Positions 2,696 to 40,176 of a stretch of 64,000 nucleotides of DNA are shown here, one piece after another. The position numbers and the translations under genes are program-made. Location of the stretch: contig CP053915.1 of assembly GCA_021496925.1 (NCBI GenBank), positions 2,537,260 through 2,601,259 of the forward strand, read 5' to 3'. This DNA is from Acidovorax sp. YS12. GTDB taxonomy: Bacteria; Pseudomonadota; Gammaproteobacteria; Burkholderiales; Burkholderiaceae_C. Within the stretch, counting starts at the first letter, position 1; each line of letters begins with the position of its first letter. A model generated the notes under the pieces. It made no database searches, had not been told where the DNA came from, and saw only the letters and a program-made list of their open reading frames with translations.

Positions 2696-2727
2696 ACCGG
2701 CCCGCCCACGTCTCCTACTCCTCCGAC

Positions 2728-3588
2728 ATGTTCGTCCTCATTGGCTATGCCATCACTTTTGGGTGCGTTTTTGGCGTGTTCGTGGCCCACGGCGGCAACG
2801 TGCATGTGCTGCTGGAGGCGCTGCCGTTTGAAATGATCACCATCGGCGGCGCGGCCCTGGGGGCGCTCATCGTGAACAACCAGCCCAAGGTGCTCAAGGC
2901 CACGATGGCCGCCATTCCCGCGGCACTCAAGGGCAACAAGTACACCAAGGCGCGCTACATGGACCTGATGGCGCTGCTCTACGACATCCTGCAAAAGGCA
3001 CGCAAGGAAGGCCTGATGGCGATCGAGGGCGACGTGGAGAACCCCAAGGAATCGCCGCTTTTCACCAAGTACCCCGGGGTGGGCACGGACCACCACGTGG
3101 TCGAGTTCATGACCGACTACCTGCGCATGATGGTGTCGGGCAACCTCAACGCGCACGAGATCGAGTCGCTGATGGACAGCGAGATCGAGACCCACCACCA
3201 GGAGGCCCATGCCCCGGTGGCGGCGCTCACGCGCCTGGCGGGCGCGCTGCCCGCCTTCGGTATCGTGGCGGCGGTGCTGGGCGTGGTGAACACCATGGGC
3301 TCGGTGGGCCAGCCGCCCGCCGTGCTCGGCGGCATGATCGCCTCGGCACTGGTGGGCACGTTCCTGGGCATCTTGCTGGCGTATGGCCTGGTCGAGCCCA
3401 TCGCCGGCCTGCTGGAGCAGAAGGCCGAGGACGCCGCCAAGGAGTTCGAGTGCATCAAGTCCACCCTGCTCGCCAGCATGCAGGGCTACAACCCGGCCAC
3501 GGCCATCGAGTTCGGGCGCAAGGTGCTGTTCTCCACCGACCGCCCCACCTTCATCGAGCTGGAAAGCCACGTGAAGGGCAAGAAGTAA
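2728..3588 (+). CDS. motA: Flagellar motor stator protein MotA
   Basis: 286 aa; MotA/TolQ/ExbB fold; C-terminal motif 'LVGTFLGILLAYGLVEPIA'. Immediately followed by motB. Confidence 0.9.
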   Translation: MFVLIGYAITFGCVFGVFVAHGGNVHVLLEALPFEMITIGGAALGALIVNNQPKVLKATMAAIPAALKGNKYTKARYMDLMALLYDILQKARKEGLMAIEGDVENPKESPLFTKYPGVGTDHHVVEFMTDYLRMMVSGNLNAHEIESLMDSEIETHHQEAHAPVAALTRLAGALPAFGIVAAVLGVVNTMGSVGQPPAVLGGMIASALVGTFLGILLAYGLVEPIAGLLEQKAEDAAKEFECIKSTLLASMQGYNPATAIEFGRKVLFSTDRPTFIELESHVKGKK

Positions 3589-28782: not shown

Positions 28783-29895
28783 CTATTTGGATATACCGCC
28801 GGGCGGCTGAAGCGCGGGCGGTGTGCAAGGGCGCACCAGCACCTGCATGGCACGCTCCACGGGCGATATCTCCACGCGCACCGGCAGGCACCGTGCAATG
28901 GTCTGCGCATTCGTCTCCGCATGGGGCGTGACCGCGCTGCAGGTGTAGCGCGCGGCCTGCCCGCTGCGCCACACCGCCAGGGCCAGCGGCAGCATCCACT
29001 GGTCGGCCAGGTGCGGGCCCAGGGCCCCCTGGCTGCGCCAGTAGGCGCGCACGTCGTCGCAGAGGCGGCGCGCCACCTGCTCGGACGACAGGCTGCGCTC
29101 GCCCAGCTGGCAGAACACCTCGGTCACGTGGGCGTGCGCCAGGATGGCCAGCAGGGCATTGCCCGGGCCTTCGTTCTGCCGCGCCACGGGCTGGCGCAGC
29201 TGGCCGGCCTCGAACGTCCAGCCCATGCGCTGGCCCAGCGCCTGCAGCTCGCGCGCGGCCACGCCTTTGGCGATACCCGGCGCCAGCACCTCGCCCCAGG
29301 CGCTCGCCAGCGGGCCGCGCTCCAGCAGGTCGAACGGCGCCAGCGGCTGCGCTGCAGGCGTGATGCGCGCCACCACCTCCCCGCCCCCGGCGGGAAAGAA
29401 GCCGCGGCGCTGCAACTGCAGGTCCAGCCCCGCGCCCAGGCGCCGCACCAGCGGTGCGAAGGCACGGTCGAGAAAGTCGAACGGCGGTGCCATGGGGTTG
29501 TGGGTGCCGCCGGCCAACTGCACTTCGCTCGCGCCATCGGCCAGCAGCAGCGCCGGCAGCACGGTCTGCAGCACCAGCATGCAGCTGCCGGCCGTGGCGA
29601 CCTGGAAGCGGTAGCGGCCCGCCCGCACCAAGCCCGGCGTGAACTGCAGCGCCTGCGCGCCCAGCGCCGCGCCTTCGGCCCGGCCATGGCACACCGCCTC
29701 GGCGGCCTGCACGCAGGCCAGATGCTGGCGCATCAGCCCCGGCTTGGGCCGCCCGGCACGAATGCGCGTGATGTGCAGCGGCTGCCCGGTGGCCAGCGAA
29801 AGGGCCAGGCCCGTGCGCAGGATCTGGCCGCCGCCTTCACCGGCGGCGCCATCAAGGGTGATGGGCGGCTGTTCTCCTGGTTCTTTGTTATGCAT
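28783..29895 (-). CDS. rtcA: RNA 3'-terminal phosphate cyclase RtcA
   Basis: Colinear with E. coli RtcA ('LDGAAGEGGGQILRTGLALS', catalytic His-containing 'RQHLACV', 'ATAGSCMLVLQTVLPAL'). Confidence 0.9.
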   Translation of the reverse strand: MHNKEPGEQPPITLDGAAGEGGGQILRTGLALSLATGQPLHITRIRAGRPKPGLMRQHLACVQAAEAVCHGRAEGAALGAQALQFTPGLVRAGRYRFQVATAGSCMLVLQTVLPALLLADGASEVQLAGGTHNPMAPPFDFLDRAFAPLVRRLGAGLDLQLQRRGFFPAGGGEVVARITPAAQPLAPFDLLERGPLASAWGEVLAPGIAKGVAARELQALGQRMGWTFEAGQLRQPVARQNEGPGNALLAILAHAHVTEVFCQLGERSLSSEQVARRLCDDVRAYWRSQGALGPHLADQWMLPLALAVWRSGQAARYTCSAVTPHAETNAQTIARCLPVRVEISPVERAMQVLVRPCTPPALQPPGGISK

Positions 29896-29896
29896 A

Positions 29897-29947
29897 AAAA
29901 GTGCCTCCAGCGCTTGTCCATGAAGCGCTGACAGCTATCAAAATGGT
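29897..29947. repeat. REP-like palindromic element inside the rtcB-rtcA intergenic spacer
   Basis: CCAGCGCTTG-TCCATG-AAGCGCTG-ACAGCTATCAAAA; family member. Confidence 0.55.
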
Positions 29948-29967
29948 AGTTATCCAGGCACGGGGCA

Positions 29968-31188
29968 TCACCCCTTCACGCACACCACCTGCTTGAGCGT
30001 GTAGACCACTTCCACCAGGTCCTGCTGCGCGGCCATGACGGCGTCGATGTCCTTGTAGGCCATCGGAATCTCGTCGATCACGTCGGCATCCTTGCGGCAT
30101 TCCACGCCCTCGGTGGCGGCGATCTGGTCGGCCACGGTGAACAGCTTCTTGGCCTTGGTGCGGCTCATGGCGCGGCCCGCGCCGTGGCTGCAGCTGTTGA
30201 AGCTCTCGGGGTGGCCCTTGCCGCGCACGATGAAGCTCTTGGCACCCATGCTGCCGGGAATGATGCCCAGCTGGCCCTGCGCGGCGCTCACCGCGCCCTT
30301 GCGGGTCACGAACACCTCCTGCCCGAAATGCGTCTCGCGCTGCACGTAGTTGTGGTGGCAGTTCACCGCTTCCACGTGTGTCTCGAACGGCTTGGCGACA
30401 CACAAGCGCAGAGCGTTGATGACGCGCGTCATCATCACCTCGCGGTTGGCGGCGGCGAACTTCTGCGCCCAGCCCACGGCCTTGACGTAGTCGCCGAAGT
30501 AGCGCGCGCCTTCCTCGAAGTAGGCCAGGTCCTTGTCGGGCAGGTTGCGCTGGTGCAATTCCGCGTCCTTCTTCGCCAGTTCGATGAAGTGCGTGCCGAT
30601 GGCGTTGCCCACGCCGCGCGAGCCGGAGTGCAGCATGATCCACACGGCCTGGTGCTCATCCAGGCACACCTCGATGAAGTGGTTGCCGGTGCCCAGCGTG
30701 CCCAGGTGCTTGTAGTTGTTGGTGTTCTTGATGCGCGGATGCGCTTCGCAGATTTCCTCGAACTCCTGCACCAGCGCGGCCCAGGCGTGGTCGGTTTCGG
30801 CGGGCGGGGTTTCCCAGCTTCCCTTGTCGCGGCCATAGCGCTTGGGCGTCAGGCCCACGGGCACGGCGCGCTCGATGACGGCGCGCACGCCCGAGAGGTT
30901 GTCGGGCAGGTCGCTGGCGGTGAGCGTGGTCTTGCAGGCCATCATTCCGCAGCCCAGATCCACGCCGACCGCCGCCGGGATGATGGCCTTCAGCGTGGGC
31001 ACGACGGAGCCGATGGTGGCGCCGATGCCCAGGTGTACGTCGGGCATCACCGCCACGTGCTTGAAAACGATGGGCAGGCGGGCGATGTTGTGCAGTTGCT
31101 TGCGTGCGTCTTCCTCCACGGGCACGCCGTGGGTCCACATCTTGACGGGGACGCCGCTGGGGACTTCGTATTGCTGGTAGTTGGTCAT
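29968..31188 (-). CDS. rtcB: RNA-splicing ligase RtcB
   Basis: 407 aa from internal ATG (MTNYQQYEV...) with RBS; >50% identical-looking to E. coli RtcB across the full length ('HNYV', 'CSHGAGR', 'VKG' C-terminus). Confidence 0.92.
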   Translation of the reverse strand: MTNYQQYEVPSGVPVKMWTHGVPVEEDARKQLHNIARLPIVFKHVAVMPDVHLGIGATIGSVVPTLKAIIPAAVGVDLGCGMMACKTTLTASDLPDNLSGVRAVIERAVPVGLTPKRYGRDKGSWETPPAETDHAWAALVQEFEEICEAHPRIKNTNNYKHLGTLGTGNHFIEVCLDEHQAVWIMLHSGSRGVGNAIGTHFIELAKKDAELHQRNLPDKDLAYFEEGARYFGDYVKAVGWAQKFAAANREVMMTRVINALRLCVAKPFETHVEAVNCHHNYVQRETHFGQEVFVTRKGAVSAAQGQLGIIPGSMGAKSFIVRGKGHPESFNSCSHGAGRAMSRTKAKKLFTVADQIAATEGVECRKDADVIDEIPMAYKDIDAVMAAQQDLVEVVYTLKQVVCVKG

Positions 31189-31211
31189 TTTTGTTTCCTG
31201 TCTCTCGTTGC

Positions 31212-31409
31212 TCATGCAGCCGCCATGACATCGAAGGCGGCGGCGATGCGGTCGGTCAGCGGGTGGTATGTTTTGCCGCATTTGCGGCAGGCGGGGCGCC
31301 AATCGCAGGGGATTCCTTTATCGATCAGCTTCAACAGCTTGTCCGCCCATGCGGCTTTGGCTTGCGGATCGGTCACCGCAGCGTTCAATGGCGTGTCTTT
31401 CTTTTTCAT
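31212..31409 (-). CDS. Small (65 aa) Cys-rich, putative zinc-ribbon protein co-oriented 23 nt upstream of rtcB
   Basis: 'CDWRPACRKCGKTYH' (C-x5-C-x2-C-x4-H). Lys-rich N-terminus. Tight spacing between the SPFH gene and rtcB. Confidence 0.4.
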   Translation of the reverse strand: MKKKDTPLNAAVTDPQAKAAWADKLLKLIDKGIPCDWRPACRKCGKTYHPLTDRIAAAFDVMAAA

Positions 31410-31427
31410 TGTTGTTTCCTCTTTCTT

Positions 31428-32573
31428 TCAACGCATCTTCACGAGGCCGTTCAGCACCTGGTCCAGCCCGCCAAAGACGGAGATCTTGTCGATGCGCTCG
31501 GCCACGCGCTCCAGCGTTTCCAGTTCCTTCATGCGCAGGGCGACGGGGTTGTCCTCCATCACCTTGGCGGTGTTGAGCAGCGAGCGCGTGGCGGCGGTTT
31601 CCTCGCGGCGGCGGATCACGTTGGCCTGGGCCTGCTTCTCGGCCTGCACCACCTGGGCCAGGATGGCCTTCATGTCCCCGGGCAGCACGATGTCCTTCAC
31701 GCCCACGCTTTCCAGTTGCAGGCCGTAGGGCTGCAGCTTGGCGGCCATGTGCGCGGTCACGACGTCGTCGATCACCGTCTTGTTCTCCAGCAGCTCGTCC
31801 AGCGTGCGCGTACCCACGGCCGCGCGCAGCGCAAATTGCAGTTCGCGGTACAGGTGCTCCACGGGCTTTTGCAACTGACCGAAGGCGCGCAGCACGTCGG
31901 TGTAGCGCCAGGTGGCGCTCAGGTTCAGGCGCAGGGCCACCTTGTCGCGGGTCATGATGTCCTGGCCCGAGACTTCGACGGCCTGCAGGCGCAGGTCCAC
32001 CAGCTCCACGGCGATGACACGGCCGTATTTCCAGAAGGCATAGCTGCCAGCGGCCAGCAGGCGGTCCACCTTGCCGTCGATGGCGAGCAGCGCGCACTGG
32101 CCGTCGGGCACCTGCACTTGCAGCACGCCGTTCAGGCCCGCCACGGGGCGCTGGCGCAGTTGGGTTTGCGCCAGGCGCGCGGTCAGGCCGGCGGGCAGCT
32201 CGGCACTGGCGCGCAGGTCGATGACCTGCACGGCCACATCGACCAGACCCTTCCAATACAGGCGGCGGGTGCCGGGCGGCAGGATTTCGACCAGCACGCC
32301 GTTCTCGCTGCGCAGGCCCGCTTCGTGTTCGGCCAGGTTCACGGCGATGAACTCGGCGGCCACCACGGCAGGCTCGCGCGCCATCAGGTATTCGGCCAGG
32401 CCGTGGGTGAAGGCGGGCTGCTCCAGCGCGAAGGTCTCCACGCGCAATTTGTCGAGGCCCGCGAACAGCCAGTGCGTGCCGCTGTGCAGAACCCGGTCGA
32501 AATCGCCGTTGCGAAGCAGCAAGGCGCGTTCGTTCTTCTTGACGGTGATGCGTTGGAGGGTGTTGTTCAGCAT
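31428..32573 (-). CDS. SPFH/band-7 (stomatin/flotillin-like) family protein, apparently soluble
   Basis: C-terminal half is classic SPFH ('QDIMTRDKVALRLN...VGVKDIVLPGDMKAILAQVVQAEKQAQANVIRRREE'). N-terminus is also SPFH-like. No obvious TM segment. Confidence 0.75.
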   Translation of the reverse strand: MLNNTLQRITVKKNERALLLRNGDFDRVLHSGTHWLFAGLDKLRVETFALEQPAFTHGLAEYLMAREPAVVAAEFIAVNLAEHEAGLRSENGVLVEILPPGTRRLYWKGLVDVAVQVIDLRASAELPAGLTARLAQTQLRQRPVAGLNGVLQVQVPDGQCALLAIDGKVDRLLAAGSYAFWKYGRVIAVELVDLRLQAVEVSGQDIMTRDKVALRLNLSATWRYTDVLRAFGQLQKPVEHLYRELQFALRAAVGTRTLDELLENKTVIDDVVTAHMAAKLQPYGLQLESVGVKDIVLPGDMKAILAQVVQAEKQAQANVIRRREETAATRSLLNTAKVMEDNPVALRMKELETLERVAERIDKISVFGGLDQVLNGLVKMR

Positions 32574-32803
32574 TTTTCTCTTCCTTCTTCTCTGTCGTCA
32601 CAGGGTGCCGTTACAGCGGCGGCGGGGAGCCAGGGGACGCGGCCTCGGGCCGTGCAGTGCGCCGGGGTGTGGCTGGCTGCGGGCGCGGGCTGCGCCGGGT
32701 GCTGGCGCAAACCGCCGCCGGCTGACGGGGTGCAGGCTTGGGCTTGCGCCTTGGCCCGTGCCCCGCGTTCGGCGGTTCTTTCAACAACCGGCCTTGCGGC
32801 CGG

Positions 32804-32877
32804 ATCAATGGACGGGATTCGAACCCGCGACAGATCTCTTATGAGGAGATTGCTCTACCAAACTGAGCTACCAGTGG
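32804..32877 (-). tRNA. tRNA-Met(CAT)-like element with two acceptor-stem mismatches (pseudo-tRNA or tRNA-mimic ncRNA)
   Basis: Minus strand reads CCACTGG-TA-GCTC-AGTTTGGTA-GAGC-A-ATCTC-CTCATAA-GAGAT-CTGTC-GCGGG-TTCGAAT-CCCGT-CCATTGA-T. D, anticodon and T arms are perfect; 1-72 and 4-69 are unpaired; no encoded CCA. A GC hairpin (CCGGCCGCAAGGCCGG) follows. Confidence 0.5.
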
Positions 32878-32935
32878 CGGCACGCCTGGAGTCGAACCAG
32901 ACACGCCCTTGCGGGTTGGTCACCACGACCGTGCC
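32875..32935 (-). ncRNA. tRNA-like minihelix (acceptor stem plus T-arm plus CCA, no D/anticodon arms), fused head-to-tail to the tRNA-Met-like element
   Basis: GGCACGG...TCTGG-TTCGACT-CCAGG-CGTGCC-G-CCA. The encoded CCA overlaps the 5' end of the downstream tRNA-like element. Confidence 0.35.
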
Positions 32936-33074
32936 AGTACCCGGCGCTTGCGGCGTGCGGCATGCAGGGAATCGACAAGGCGCGAAGGCCCCGGACTCCC
33001 GGCACCGGCAGGGCGGACATGCGTCCAAACCCTGGCCTGTGAGCGTTCGGCGCTTGCGTCGGGTACCTTGTCTA

Positions 33075-33091
33075 TTGCCAGATGCGTGCCA
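33075..33091 (-). promoter_or_regulatory. Candidate sigma-54 promoter (TGGCACG-N4-TGGCA) reading toward the tRNA-like leader, SPFH, rtcB and rtcA
   Basis: Minus strand TGGCACGCATCTGGCA; -24 GG and -12 GC are correctly spaced. RtcR is a sigma-54 activator. Confidence 0.45.
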
Positions 33092-33211
33092 GCCTGGGTG
33101 GAATTGCGCTAACCATTTGCCACCAAAGGGGAAAACCGGATTCATCGGTCATCGGTGCGATTGCTGATTGCCAGTATTGCTAGACTGTTGGCTAGTTATC
33201 TAGCTGAAAAC

Positions 33212-34834
33212 ATGCACAAGAAAAAAGTGGTCATCGGCTTCCTCGGCACGCAGCTCGACTCGGGCCGGGGCGCGGGCCGCTGGCAAAAGTGGCGGCCTAC
33301 CGTCTCGCTGGTGCAGCACCCGGACATGGTGATCGACCGGCTGGAACTGCTCTACACAACCCCGCACAAGGATCTGGCCGCGCTGGTGCGCGCCGACATC
33401 GCCACCACCTCGCCCGAGACTTCGGTCAACCTCGTGGAGATGCCCACCGCCGATCCGTGGGACTTCGGCGAGGTCTATGCGCGCCTGTTCGACTGGGCGC
33501 AGGCCTACCGCTTCGACCCGGAGCGCGAGGACTACTGGACGCACATCACCACCGGAACGCACGTGGCGCAGATCTGCCTGTTCCTGCTGGTCGAGTCGCG
33601 CCGCATTCCGGGGGTGCTGGTGCAAACCTCTCCCCCGAAGCGCCAGCGCAGCGGCGCGCCGGGCACCTACACGCTGATCGACCTGGACCTGTCGCGCTAC
33701 GACGTGATCGCCCAGCGCTTCGGCGCCGAGCAGCGCGACGCGGTGCAGTTCCTCAAGAGCGGCATCGCCACGCGCAACGCGCGCTTCAACGCGCTGATCG
33801 ACGAGGTGGAGCGCGTGGCAGTGCGCTCGCGCGCGCCCATCCTGTTCACCGGGCCCACGGGCGCGGGCAAATCGCACCTGGCGCGGCGCATGTACGCGTT
33901 GAAGAAGGCGCGCCACCAGGTGCAAGGCCCGTTCGTCGAAGTGAACTGCGCCACCTTGCGCGGCGATGGCGCGGCCTCCACCCTGTTCGGCCACAAGAAG
34001 GGCGCCTTCACCGGCGCGGCCGCAGACCGGCCGGGCCTGCTGCGCGCCGCGCACCAGGGCGTGCTGTTTCTCGACGAAATCGGCGAGCTGGGCCTGGACG
34101 AGCAGGCCATGCTGCTCAAGGCCGTGGAGGAAAAGCGCTTCTACCCCCTGGGCAGCGACCGGGAGGTGGAAAGCGACTTCCAGCTGGTGGCCGGCACCAA
34201 CCGCGACCTGCGGGCCGAGGTGGCGGCGGGGCGCTTCCGCGAAGACCTGTTCGCGCGCATCAACCTCTGGAGCTACGTGCTGCCCGGCCTGGCGCAGCGG
34301 CCCGAAGACATCGCCCCCAACGTGGACCACCTGCTGGCGCAGGCGGGCCATGCGCTGGGCCGCGGCGTGCGCTTTTCCAGCGAGGCACGGGCGGCGTACC
34401 TGCGCTACGCCCAGTCGCCCGAGGCGCCGTGGGCGGGCAACTTCCGCGACCTGTCGGCCAGCGTGACGCGCCTGGCCACGCTGGCGGACAACGGGCGCAT
34501 CGGCCTGCCCTTGGTGGACGCGGAGCTGCAGCGGCTGCGCTGGCAATGGGAGCGGCTCGGGAACGCGCCGGCAATGGACGCGCAGGCCGGCGGCGTCGAT
34601 CTGGCGGCCTTGCTGGGCGGCGAGGCACTGCAGTCCATCGACCTGTTCGACCAATTGCAGTTGCGCGCGGTGCTGCAGGTGTGCCAGCGCGCGCGCACCC
34701 TGTCGGAAGCGGGGCGGATGCTGTTCCAGGCCTCGCGCGGGCAGCGCAGCGTGGTCAACGATGCCGACCGGCTGCGCAAATACCTGGCACGGTTCGGGCT
34801 GACGTGGGACCGGGTGCGCGAAGCTCTGGGATAA
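33212..34834 (+). CDS. rtcR: Sigma-54-dependent transcriptional activator RtcR (N-terminal CARF domain, AAA+ domain, HTH)
   Basis: N-terminus 'KKVVIGFLGTQLD' resembles E. coli RtcR. Walker A 'GPTGAGKS'; sigma54-interaction motif present. Confidence 0.9.
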   Translation: MHKKKVVIGFLGTQLDSGRGAGRWQKWRPTVSLVQHPDMVIDRLELLYTTPHKDLAALVRADIATTSPETSVNLVEMPTADPWDFGEVYARLFDWAQAYRFDPEREDYWTHITTGTHVAQICLFLLVESRRIPGVLVQTSPPKRQRSGAPGTYTLIDLDLSRYDVIAQRFGAEQRDAVQFLKSGIATRNARFNALIDEVERVAVRSRAPILFTGPTGAGKSHLARRMYALKKARHQVQGPFVEVNCATLRGDGAASTLFGHKKGAFTGAAADRPGLLRAAHQGVLFLDEIGELGLDEQAMLLKAVEEKRFYPLGSDREVESDFQLVAGTNRDLRAEVAAGRFREDLFARINLWSYVLPGLAQRPEDIAPNVDHLLAQAGHALGRGVRFSSEARAAYLRYAQSPEAPWAGNFRDLSASVTRLATLADNGRIGLPLVDAELQRLRWQWERLGNAPAMDAQAGGVDLAALLGGEALQSIDLFDQLQLRAVLQVCQRARTLSEAGRMLFQASRGQRSVVNDADRLRKYLARFGLTWDRVREALG

Positions 34835-34842
34835 TCGCCCCC

Positions 34843-35182
34843 GTGAAGCACGCCAGACCGCCGCTGGTGCTAGTGCCGAAAGGCCGCACTGGAGGAATGT
34901 CCGGACTGCACAGGACAGCGTAGCAGCTAACGGCTGCCCACCGTGAGGTGAGGATCAGAGCAACAGAGACGAGTCCCGGGGGAGTGCCGCAAGGTAGACC
35001 ACTGGGGGTGAAACGGGCAATCTCTACGCGCAGCAACACCAAGTAGGCCAGCGTTGACGTGGTTCCGCGGAGCTGGCGGGTAGGTGGCACCGAGCCGTGG
35101 TGGCGACACCCGGCCCAGAGTAATGGCGGTCACGTGCGGGCAACCGCATGCACAGAATCCGGCTTATCGGCGCGCTTCACAC
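34843..35182 (+). ncRNA. rnpB: RNase P RNA (bacterial type A), 8 nt downstream of the rtcR stop
   Basis: P4 strands 'GGAGGAATGTCCGGAC' and 'CACAGAATCCGGCTTATCGG'. P1 pairing GTGAAGCACGCC / GGCGCGCTTCAC. 'GGTGAAACGGG' and 'GAGTAATGGCGGTCACG' are conserved modules. Confidence 0.85.
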
Positions 35183-38519: not shown

Positions 38520-40176
38520 TGCCGGGCTCCAGCATGCGGATGCGCTCCACGTGCGCCAGCAGCGAGCGCTGCGCCACCGGCCACAGGCGCGGCGGCACGT
38601 CGGCGTAGGCGTGCTCGACCCACTGCTCCACCGTGCCCTCGGGCAGCGCCTGCATGGCGGCGATGACCCTGGCCTCGCGCGCCAGGCGGTGGGCCTTGAG
38701 CTGCGCGATGGTGGCGCGTGCCGTGCCCAGCACGTAGCCGTGCGCGGGCAGGATGAATTCGACGCCGTGCGCGGCGCACAGCGCGTCGAGCCGGTCGAGC
38801 GCGTCCAGGTAATCCGCCATATTGCCGTCGGGCGGGTCGATCACCGTGGTGCTGCCGTTGAGGATGTGGTCGCCCGAGAACAGCAGCGCATCCTCGACCA
38901 GCAGCAGGCACAGGTGGTTGGCCGCGTGGCCGGGCGTGTGCACCACCTGCAGGGTATGGGTGATTTCACCCTCCAGGCCTTTGCCAGCAAGCGTGAGCAG
39001 CTCCCCATCTTGTAGCGCCCGCTCGGGCGTGAACTGGGCCGCGGCGCGCGCCGTGGGGGCCGAGGGCAGGCCCAGGATAGGCGGCGCGGCGCGCCCAGCC
39101 TGCACGCACAACTGCTGCAGTGGCCAGGCGCCGGGCGAGTGGTCGGCGTGCGAGTGCGTGCACACGATCATGCGGATGTCGCCGCCCGCGGCGCGCCACA
39201 GGCGCTGCAGGTGCTCCAGGTCCTCGGGGCCGGGGTCGATGGCGATGTAGCCCGTGGCCGGGTCGCCCACCAGATAGCTGTTGGTGCCGGGGCCGGTCAT
39301 CACGCCCGGGTTGGGGGCGGTGAGGCGCTGCAGGTTCTTGCGCAGCGCCACGGAGCGCTCGCTCTGCCACTCCAGCGGGTGCACGATCTGCCCGTCGGGG
39401 CAGACCATGGCCAGCTCGCCGAACTCGGGCTCGTGCTCCATGTGGCGCGATTCCTTGCCGTGGCGCAGCCCGGCGCGCGGGCAGCTCACCCACAGCGGCG
39501 CCTCGCCCGCCACGGCGGCCAGCAGCGCGCCGGTGTGGGCGTAGGCCGCCAGGCGCTCCAGCGTGCGGATGGTGGGGTAGATCATGAAGAACTGCCCGGC
39601 GGCGTGGCGCGCCAGCGCATCGGCCGGGCGCACCCACACGGGCTCGAACTGCTCGGCCTCGTCGGCCACGGGCTCCTGGCCGGGCGGCATGCGCGCCACC
39701 AGGAAGGGCACGGCGAAGCGCTTGGGCAGGTCGCGGTCGGCCGTCCAGTGCGCCAGCAGGTACACGGCGTCGGCCGCCAGGCGCAGGCCGCGCGCCGCCA
39801 CCTGCGCGGCGAAGGGGCCGCGGCGGTCGAGCGCGGCGATGTCGGCCGCGCCGGCCCAGCGGCCATCGGCATGGCGCGCCAGCAGGATGCCCAGTTCCTC
39901 GAAGCTCTCGCGGATGGCGGCGATGGCCTCGGTCAGGTGCCGCTCGCCCTGCGCCGGGCGGCGGTCGGCCAGGGCGTGGGCGGCGCTGTCCTGCGCGTCG
40001 ATGCCGCCGCCGGGGAACACGTAGGCGCCGGGGGCGAAGCTGGCCTGGGCGCTGCGGCGCGTCATCAGCACTTCGAGCGCGCCGTCGGCCCCATCGCGCA
40101 GCAGCAGCACGGTGGCGGCCTCGAGCGGCCGGGCGGGCTGGCGCGCGGGGTGCAGGTATTGGTTGGTACGGGCCAT
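38512..40176 (-). CDS. NUDIX hydrolase fused to an MBL-fold metallo-hydrolase
   Basis: N-terminal Nudix box 'GGGIDAQDSAAHALADRRPAQGERHLTEAIAAIRESFEELG'. C-terminal 'CTHSHADH' MBL motif. The two halves are continuous in frame. Confidence 0.7.
   Translation of the reverse strand: MARTNQYLHPARQPARPLEAATVLLLRDGADGALEVLMTRRSAQASFAPGAYVFPGGGIDAQDSAAHALADRRPAQGERHLTEAIAAIRESFEELGILLARHADGRWAGAADIAALDRRGPFAAQVAARGLRLAADAVYLLAHWTADRDLPKRFAVPFLVARMPPGQEPVADEAEQFEPVWVRPADALARHAAGQFFMIYPTIRTLERLAAYAHTGALLAAVAGEAPLWVSCPRAGLRHGKESRHMEHEPEFGELAMVCPDGQIVHPLEWQSERSVALRKNLQRLTAPNPGVMTGPGTNSYLVGDPATGYIAIDPGPEDLEHLQRLWRAAGGDIRMIVCTHSHADHSPGAWPLQQLCVQAGRAAPPILGLPSAPTARAAAQFTPERALQDGELLTLAGKGLEGEITHTLQVVHTPGHAANHLCLLLVEDALLFSGDHILNGSTTVIDPPDGNMADYLDALDRLDALCAAHGVEFILPAHGYVLGTARATIAQLKAHRLAREARVIAAMQALPEGTVEQWVEHAYADVPPRLWPVAQRSLLAHVERIRMLEPGND

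Follow-up and report, generated by a model that had tools for sequence, protein, structure and literature searches.

A Band-7-class RNA-repair operon in Acidovorax sp. YS12, probably organised around a soluble SPFH protein and a tRNA-like leader RNA, with a deletion relic in its accessory slot

The DNA analysed here is a window of 64,000 nucleotides (nt) from Acidovorax sp. YS12 (contig CP053915.1, positions 2,537,260 to 2,601,259), and our subject is a group of RNA-repair genes encoded near its middle (Table 1). Genes for the RNA ligase RtcB and the RNA 3'-phosphate cyclase RtcA are preceded on the same strand by two open reading frames (ORFs) of 381 and 65 amino acids (aa), while the gene for the activator RtcR is encoded divergently. 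The RtcR protein scored 822 bits with the NCBIfam equivalog RNA_repair_RtcR (cutoff 650) and also carries the Pfam domains RtcR and Sigma54_activat; its mechanical ORF begins at 33155, the likely start is at 33212, and the gene call in the near-identical locus L001 is 540 aa long. A reading of this DNA made from the letters alone (the sequence-only reading) had placed both ORFs within an rtc operon under the control of RtcR and sigma54, and had described them as a 381-aa protein without a transmembrane (TM) segment and a 65-aa basic protein with a C-x5-C-x2-C-x4-H motif, separated from each other and from rtcB by 18 and 23 nt. This description is accurate in every part: RtcB, RtcA and RtcR are all recognised by Pfam or NCBIfam, a sigma54-type promoter match lies upstream, and the two spacers occupy positions 31410-31427 and 31189-31211. 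The RNA encoded between the promoter and the first ORF, which includes a tRNA-like gene and further structured domains, had been overlooked.

Table 1. Features of the rtc locus, in window coordinates and in the order in which the operon is read
Feature	Position	Strand	Basis or remark
rtcR, sigma54-dependent activator with CARF-like RtcR domain	33212-34834	plus	divergent from the operon
Sigma54-type -24/-12 promoter element TGGCACGcatcTGGCA	33091-33076	minus	regex consensus match only (start site predicted)
5' leader domain	33064-32937	minus	two covarying stems, invariant CCGGTGC and ATGCCGC; 5' end inferred from promoter position
Degenerate first tRNA-like module	32936-32878	minus	acceptor-like GGCACG/CGUGCC, T-arm CUGGUUCGACUCCAG; directly upstream of the cloverleaf
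tRNA-like RNA of the Band-7-associated ('b7a-tRNA') kind	32877-32802	minus	ARAGORN, Rfam, R1; on the operon strand between sigma54 element and SPFH start
GC-rich hairpin CCGGCC-GCAA-GGCCGG	32803-32788	minus	directly 3' of the tRNA-like RNA, without U-tract
3' leader domain, closing helix GCCG...CGGC	32776-32602	minus	within the ~230-nt stretch from tRNA-like RNA to SPFH start
Soluble SPFH/Band-7 ('slipin') protein, 381 aa	32573-31428	minus	Pfam Band_7, AlphaFold2 model
65-aa ORF, in-frame internal-deletion relic of a 264-aa helical-repeat gene	31409-31212	minus	parent residues 1-12 fused to ~212-264
rtcB, RNA ligase, 406 aa	31188-29968	minus	Pfam RtcB 426 bits
rtcA, RNA 3'-phosphate cyclase, 370 aa	29895-28783	minus	NCBIfam equivalog 377 bits (cutoff 352); Pfam RTC

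The 381-aa protein matched Pfam Band_7 (PF01145) over residues 154-325 with 107.1 bits (cutoff 23.6, E 1.4e-30), and the NCBI annotation of the protein (100% identical, Acidovorax sp. YS12) is 'slipin family protein'. In the AlphaFold2 (AF2) model, with a mean predicted local distance difference test score (pLDDT) of 81.4, three five-stranded beta modules (residues ~3-50, 72-122 and 146-195) are followed by an alpha/beta core resembling that of stomatin (196-295) and then by long helices at the C-terminus (298-363). Helices of this type drive the assembly of rings and cages in other SPFH proteins. Profile comparison identified the three beta modules as homologous repeats (probability 97.8-98.5%), with the third corresponding to the usual start of Band_7. 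The protein thus has the domain match, the alpha/beta fold and the long helices typical of SPFH proteins and is missing the N-terminal membrane anchor; the highest 19-residue Kyte-Doolittle mean is 1.24, and therefore no TM helix is predicted. Since the modules are homologous and the third one marks the Band_7 start, the family can be described as stomatin-type SPFH with two additional beta modules at the place of the anchor, and because these modules replace the anchor the protein should be cytosolic. The closest solved structures are those of membrane stomatins and HflK/C. The ratio of non-synonymous to synonymous polymorphism (pN/pS) of the gene against a sister strain that is 99% identical is 0.05, which corresponds to strong purifying selection. 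The family has many members (594 clusters at 50% identity, E<1e-30), most of them full-length proteins of ~375-390 aa. Some (P0123, P0126, P0130, P0132 and similar) are 500-560 aa long and align with the query in two segments, as would be consistent with added copies of the N-terminal beta module and hence with a variable number of repeats in the family. The match in Burkholderia pyrrocinia (L066:6001-7587) spans 1587 nt instead of ~1130 and its best tblastn segment begins at residue 22, which suggests an insertion or a disruption in that copy.

In order to examine how widely this protein is linked with rtcB, we scanned one genome for each species, guided by a profile, and collected 80 loci; their SPFH proteins are 55-89% identical to that of the window. 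Of the 74 loci that could be assessed, 61 encode RtcB downstream of the SPFH gene and on its strand, 59 of them within 1.5 kb, and a divergent rtcR lies upstream in 50 of 73. The arrangement extends to more distant homologs. Photobacterium (39% identity) has the order rtcR, two tRNA-like RNAs, SPFH and RtcB, and in Subdoligranulum, a member of Bacillota (34% identity), an RtcB-family gene directly follows the SPFH gene. The sequence-only reading had offered to treat the linkage as incidental if the SPFH gene were not syntenic with rtcB outside this strain; because synteny persists to Photobacterium and Subdoligranulum, that outcome does not apply, and comparative evidence indicates that the association is genuine and well conserved, from Betaproteobacteria to Bacillota. 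We could not find an SPFH homolog in the phage collection, and apparent 'plasmid' matches were rejected because they belong to chromids or mislabelled chromosomes.

The linkage is also not new. Although the sequence-only reading held that SPFH proteins were not established Rtc partners, a Band-7 protein and a 'b7a-tRNA' were predicted as partners of RtcB by Burroughs & Aravind (NAR 2016), in the summary of that work given by Wang et al. (bioRxiv 10.1101/312249), and the Pseudomonas aeruginosa protein PA4582/PaFlo8 is encoded inside the rtc locus (PMC13086221, PMC8619066). A survey from 2026 gave the latter gene the name PaFlo8 and describes it as 'embedded within the rtc locus' (PMC13086221). 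The operon class was already predicted by comparative genomics, the window contains another member of it, and a scaffold or gating role for the SPFH protein is the leading hypothesis of the literature.

Two further kinds of loci were observed. A number of SPFH loci have neither rtcR nor a sigma54 promoter (L015-L025, L028, L036, L038, L047, L080, L083, L085, L087, L089); there, ordinary tRNA gene arrays of up to 15 genes directly precede the tRNA-like RNA, the SPFH gene and usually RtcB (e.g. L036:1690-4717). These loci look like islands for tRNA supply and tRNA repair, possibly directed against tRNA-targeting toxins. Additionally, the Ideonella locus (L009) has a truncated rtcR of 189 aa (2697-3266) beside HemolysinCabind genes.

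The transcript predicted to start from the sigma54 promoter has a leader of ~460 nt, in which we recognised two covarying domains besides a cloverleaf tRNA-like RNA and a degenerate module that is also tRNA-like. A regex scan placed the promoter element upstream of the tRNA-like gene at a distance of ~194 nt. This distance is conserved: in 15 other loci that carry rtcR a matching element lies 168-214 nt upstream, and the sole match in a locus without rtcR (L078) lies at 239 nt. The cloverleaf was called by ARAGORN as tRNA-Met with a canonical 7-nt CUCAUAA loop and a CAU anticodon; it scored 53.5 bits with the Rfam tRNA model (gathering threshold 29) and 77.9 bits with R1, a covariance model that we built for this family. 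In 76 of the 80 loci, R1 detected a homolog upstream of the SPFH gene, at a distance of 204-529 nt (median 256). Covariation supports the cloverleaf: 90.6% of the cells in a 48-sequence alignment are paired, compared with 75% in shuffles and 36-45% for slid partners, and compensatory changes occur in all five anticodon-stem pairs.

While the fold is that of a tRNA, several properties are not. Homologs at the same position read Met, Thr, Ile, Arg, Val, Lys, Leu, Ser, Asn, Phe, Cys, Ala and Stop, and others have loops of 2 or 4 nt, Burkholderia and Pseudomonas having tetraloops. The outermost three pairs of the acceptor stem are only 44% paired across the family, the window copy is mismatched at 1:72 and 4:69, and CCA is not encoded, since UCCG rather than NCCA follows. 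Free variation of the anticodon, the low pairing of the outer acceptor stem, the two mismatches and the missing CCA lead us to conclude, on sequence grounds, that this RNA is not a decoding tRNA. The degenerate module directly in front of it gave below-gathering Rfam matches (mascRNA-like, 18 bits; a partial YrlA, RF02553, 26 bits against a threshold of 69), and its T-arm hairpin is kept in 14 loci; two full tRNA-like RNAs stand in tandem in the Pseudomonas and Photobacterium loci. Hairpins equivalent to the GC-rich one after the cloverleaf follow the tRNA-like RNA in most loci, and a terminator scan reported none at the position of this hairpin (32788-32803). In Ideonella, a third tRNA-like T-arm element is located between the SPFH gene and rtcB (L009:5305-5392). 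A comparable origin of the small-ORF region in the window was considered and rejected, because R1 has a single match in the window and the T-arm motif is absent from that region.

The two remaining leader domains are supported by comparison as well. RNAalifold predicted 24 pairs in the 5' domain from 14 loci, 15 of them with compensatory changes. For the multi-helix 3' domain, 44 pairs are predicted from 20 Burkholderiales loci, 26 of them compensatory. In the 3' domain, 93% of the cells are paired, compared with 79% in shuffles (none of 500 reached the observed value) and 29-48% in slid controls. Its invariant motifs are CCGCCGAACG and CUGUAACGGCACC, the second of which ends ~30 nt before the SPFH start codon. 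A covariance model of the 3' domain (R2), built on a trimmed alignment, matched 35 sources, of which 15 had not contributed to the seed; each locus has exactly one match, always at the same position. At E<0.01, R2 had no match in the leaders of Pseudomonas, Burkholderia and Rhodocyclales, where a diverged version is present (GCAGUACCCGCCGG...). Neither the 5' nor the 3' domain matched an Rfam family. The minimum free energy (MFE) fold of the whole leader is not significant when taken alone (z = -1.67); the evidence for structure is comparative. We propose the 3' domain as a candidate new RNA motif. The most interesting material of the locus lies outside the stretch covered by the sequence-only reading: it is this multi-domain leader RNA, together with the soluble SPFH protein with its triplicated beta module.

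The 65-aa ORF, on the other hand, turned out to be what is left of a larger gene. It encodes a basic product (pI 9.4) with the motif C35-x5-C41-x2-C44-x4-H49, which the sequence-only reading had interpreted as a zinc-ribbon-like, nucleic-acid-binding protein. Pfam and NCBIfam assign it to no family and returned only a sub-threshold ADK_lid match, and a k-mer-indexed search of 5.8 billion proteins found two homologs, a 65-aa and a 47-aa version, both in near-identical strains; the 47-aa allele has a further in-frame deletion of 18 codons. In comparison with the sister strain (P0001), the ORF has seven non-synonymous and two synonymous changes, including C35G, C44G and Y48P. From these nine substitutions its pN/pS is 1.06, compared with 0.05-0.22 for rtcR, SPFH, rtcB and rtcA (Fisher p = 0.002). 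The GC content at third codon positions (GC3) also sets it apart, with 0.71 against 0.89-0.92 in the four neighboring genes.

Homology to the parent gene surfaced only when the ORFs occupying the slot between SPFH and rtcB were compared across syntenic loci. The 65-aa ORF matches the C-terminus of slot proteins of 281 and 283 aa in Delftia and Paracidovorax, and the closest full-length parents (P0302, P0303, P0306, P0310) match it at both ends: the N-terminal alignment is MKKKDTPLNAAV against MKKQQTPLDAAV, and the C-terminal one is DPQAKAAWADKLLKL...DWRPACRKCGKTYHPLTDRIAAAFDVMAAA against DPQVKAAWAHKLLKL...DWRPACAKCGQIHYPLTERIAAVFDAMAS. An hhalign comparison with the parent family gave a probability of 95.7% (E 9.5e-9), with 60% identity to residues 209-264 of P0303. 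The P0303 locus (L090) is syntenic with the window, and the DNA alignment of the two contains a single gap of ~597 nt (199 codons). All invariant residues of the parents (C32, C35, C36, H57, H94 and R102 in P0303 numbering) fall within the deleted codons. What remains are the parental ribosome-binding site (RBS), start and stop, with 12 N-terminal and 53 C-terminal residues; the model of the parent is all-alpha, and the segment equivalent to the C-terminus of the 65-aa product is a loop followed by a helix. On this comparison, the 65-aa ORF is an allele of a 264-aa helical-repeat accessory gene from which 199 codons were deleted in frame. Because the RBS, start and stop are kept, the relic is probably still translated; most likely it lacks an independent function, and the in-frame remnant may simply spare rtcB from polar effects. 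The parent family comprises 125 clusters of 260-285 aa, all annotated as 'hypothetical' and confined to Comamonadaceae and Burkholderiales; the relic shares the first 12 and last 53 residues, as well as the slot, with members such as P0303 and P0284 (Acidovorax delafieldii).

The slot itself is variable. It is only 50-150 nt long and contains no gene in 27 loci, and elsewhere it is occupied by basic zf_Tbcl proteins of 120-160 aa, by proteins of 246-283 aa without a Pfam or NCBIfam match, by a 165-aa protein or by a 361-aa homolog of ClpP-like proteases. The zf_Tbcl domain (PF13451) was recognised at L054:7177-7536 and L057:7149-7634 (E 1e-11 to 1e-13), and similar basic ORFs of 120-160 aa occupy the slot in L035, L044, L046, L049, L055, L056, L060, L061, L071, L073, L081 and L084. 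The zf_Tbcl protein is a genuine, recurrent small zinc protein that is unrelated to the 65-aa ORF of the window; we had considered the latter as a zf_Tbcl fragment and rejected this, as a six-residue CRxCGK match to L044 and L061 is at chance level (E 2 to 7) and there is no Pfam match. A second accessory gene is also missing. The gap between rtcB and rtcA measures 72 nt in the window (29896-29967), and because the relatives L090, L007 and L009 carry a nucleotidyltransferase gene, RlaP (PF10127), in its place, we conclude that RlaP was lost in this lineage. The deletions in the 264-aa gene together with the loss of RlaP indicate reductive evolution of accessory genes in the lineage.

We consider it likely that positions 28783-34834 form a single RtcR/sigma54-controlled operon of the Band-7 / tRNA-like RNA / RtcB type, with the 65-aa relic in its accessory slot, in which the SPFH protein and the tRNA-like RNA cooperate as a scaffold or a decoy. 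RtcR would be activated by RNA damage, leading to transcription of the leader, and the tRNA-like part would be released by tRNA-processing enzymes. The soluble SPFH protein could then oligomerise through its stomatin-like core and helices and bind the tRNA-like RNA. The resulting ribonucleoprotein (RNP) may serve as a scaffold presenting broken tRNA-like substrates to RtcB and RtcA, or else as a decoy for anticodon nucleases, a role like the one proposed for Rsr(Ro60)/YrlA; the decoy idea was put forward for YrlA's tRNA-like domain (PMC7790460).

Several considerations speak against this reading, or at least against parts of it. We infer SPFH-RNA and SPFH-RtcB binding, oligomerisation and leader processing from computational analysis. 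The AF2 model was built on a shallow alignment (35 sequences of at least 78% identity), and its C-terminal 50 residues have low confidence. Deletion of paFlo8 was without a phenotype in assays of growth, virulence factors, motility, biofilm and oxidative stress, with no RNA-damage assay among them (PMC13086221). Homologous SPFH genes (56% identity) in Citrobacter freundii (L092) and E. coli STEC639 (L095) are followed by a nucleotidyltransferase gene, with RtcB and RtcA absent nearby; rtcR is present in the Citrobacter locus and absent from the E. coli record, and the Citrobacter tRNA-like RNA is reduced to the T-arm hairpin. Because of these loci, the SPFH/RNA module cannot be regarded as strictly a cofactor of RtcB. 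With regard to the relic, the pN/pS value is an estimate from 9 substitutions only, and the frame is open in three alleles with both deletions in frame, which leaves some room for residual function.

Other explanations can be given for single parts of the locus. The cloverleaf could be a plain working tRNA-Met gene that happens to lie beside the operon, as the ARAGORN call, the canonical loop and the Rfam score above gathering would have it. We regard this as extremely unlikely, given the position of the RNA within the sigma54 leader on the operon strand, the at least 12 different 'anticodons' and the 2- and 4-nt loops among positional homologs, and the defects of the acceptor stem and 3' end described above. 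It is likewise very unlikely that the 65-aa ORF encodes a functional zinc-ribbon-like mini-protein that works with an SPFH scaffold to localise or gate RtcB, as the sequence-only reading had suggested. A good RBS, the tight spacing, the basic composition with its cysteine motif and the frame kept intact in three alleles would suit such a protein, as would the C-x2-C-x4-H that it has in common with the parents P0302, P0303, P0306 and P0310 and the presence of a genuine zinc-binding treble clef, zf_Tbcl, in the same slot of other lineages. However, the product has no homology to zf_Tbcl and matches no Pfam or NCBIfam family, and its relatives, apart from the 264-aa parents, are confined to near-identical strains. 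The motif has only one CxxC knuckle (C41-x2-C44) besides C35 and H49, where a zinc ribbon would have two knuckles and four ligands, and these residues are poorly kept: two of the three cysteines are glycine in the closest relative, C35 does not occur in the closest parents, and parents of the L026 type have none of the cysteines. A pN/pS near one, an atypical GC3 and descent from an all-alpha protein that has lost every invariant residue argue in the same direction.

Turning to the SPFH protein, its position in the operon might be incidental and the protein an ordinary SPFH of membrane microdomains, such as a protease regulator. The generic annotation as a slipin, the membrane stomatins and HflK/C among the nearest structures, and the grouping of PaFlo8 with SPFH-domain membrane-associated factors in the P. 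aeruginosa study are compatible with this. Yet the protein has no TM segment or hydrophobic anchor, no gene for an NfeD or FtsH partner is adjacent, and its gene stays syntenic with rtcB, rtcR and the tRNA-like RNA in different phyla, at identities that fall from 89% to 34%, so that we find this explanation scarcely credible. A serious rival, even if we judge it unlikely, is that the SPFH protein and the leader are mainly regulatory: the leader would sense, in cis, either RtcB activity or tRNA that is damaged or uncharged, and RtcR or the operon's translation would be subject to feedback from the SPFH protein. Conserved structured domains in the 5' untranslated region directly before the SPFH RBS fit this idea, and so do the control of RtcR by RtcA/RtcB and tRNA fragments (PMC9650030, PMC7790460) and the Citrobacter locus, which has SPFH with rtcR but without RtcB. 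Against it, the same tRNA-like RNA and 3' domain occur behind tRNA arrays in loci without rtcR or a sigma54 promoter, and the 3' motif ends ~30 nt before the start codon without obviously masking the RBS.

Beyond the scaffold or decoy operon that we favor, we put forward a more speculative possibility, which we hold to be rather doubtful as a whole. The ~460-nt leader may function as one large multi-domain non-coding RNA (ncRNA), made of the two tRNA-like modules and the 5' and 3' domains, that assembles with the soluble SPFH protein into a closed, vault-like cytosolic RNP and captures cleaved tRNAs for RtcB or decoys anticodon nucleases; the 3' domain would then represent a new RNA family.

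Several known systems can be set beside this operon. As they are outlined in the source cited above, Band-7/b7a-tRNA/RtcB systems have a Band-7 gene adjoining RtcB in one operon, a tRNA-like ncRNA beside it, RtcR and RtcA, and a scaffold or cofactor role in RNA ligation is proposed for the Band-7 protein; relative to that outline, the window is without RlaP and has only a deletion relic in the accessory slot. The rsr-yrlBA-rtcBA operon of Salmonella, which encodes Rsr (Ro60) and the Y RNAs YrlA and YrlB, is also controlled by RtcR and sigma54 and also has a presumed scaffold and a tRNA-mimicking ncRNA between promoter and rtcB. The resemblance of part of the window's leader to YrlA is weak (26 bits, far below gathering). 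The window differs from the Salmonella operon in encoding an SPFH protein instead of a TROVE/vWA protein and in having its RNA embedded in an mRNA leader, in which a Ro-binding stem was not identified. In P. aeruginosa, PA4582 (PA14_60630, PaFlo8) is likewise an SPFH gene between rtcR and rtcB; the Pseudomonas loci of our set, whose identity to the window SPFH (60-63%) is not a figure for PA4582 itself, have the same gene order and differ by their tandem tRNA-like RNAs and, in some, a zf_Tbcl slot protein. From the membrane SPFH cages (stomatin, HflK/C, QmcA, prohibitin, flotillin) the window protein is distinguished by the lack of a TM or hairpin anchor and of an NfeD/FtsH partner and by its RNA-repair context. 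Similarity to the major vault protein (MVP) of the vault RNP, a eukaryotic protein with more repeats, is much weaker than that to stomatin and should be regarded as analogy, not membership.

Two observations concern the surroundings of the operon. An RNase P RNA gene (Rfam RF00010, 201 bits; 34845-35182, plus strand) adjoins rtcR at its 3' end, and L008 shows the same adjacency. This probably reflects just conserved local synteny, but a tRNA-like leader would be expected to be processed by RNase P. Further away, at 38643-38728 on the plus strand, ARAGORN called an 86-nt 'tRNA-Ala (CGC)' that the Rfam tRNA model did not report at its gathering threshold and that is perhaps a spurious call or else an unusual tRNA.

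Little is understood about bacterial RtcB systems, including what their non-enzymatic partners do. The window provides a clean and compact example of the Band-7 class, comprising rtcR, leader RNA, SPFH, rtcB and rtcA, in which the optional genes have decayed or been lost. Because these genes have decayed or been lost, the locus suggests a division between a core (SPFH, tRNA-like RNA, ligase and cyclase) and dispensable components (the 264-aa helical protein and RlaP). It also carries a caution, as a short, basic, cysteine-bearing ORF in a closely spaced operon can be what an in-frame deletion has left of a longer gene. For biochemistry, handles are provided by the soluble SPFH protein, with its triplicated beta modules, and by the elaborate, covarying leader RNA. 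If the vault-like RNP were to prove true, it would be a bacterial SPFH cage that acts on RNA and not on membranes.

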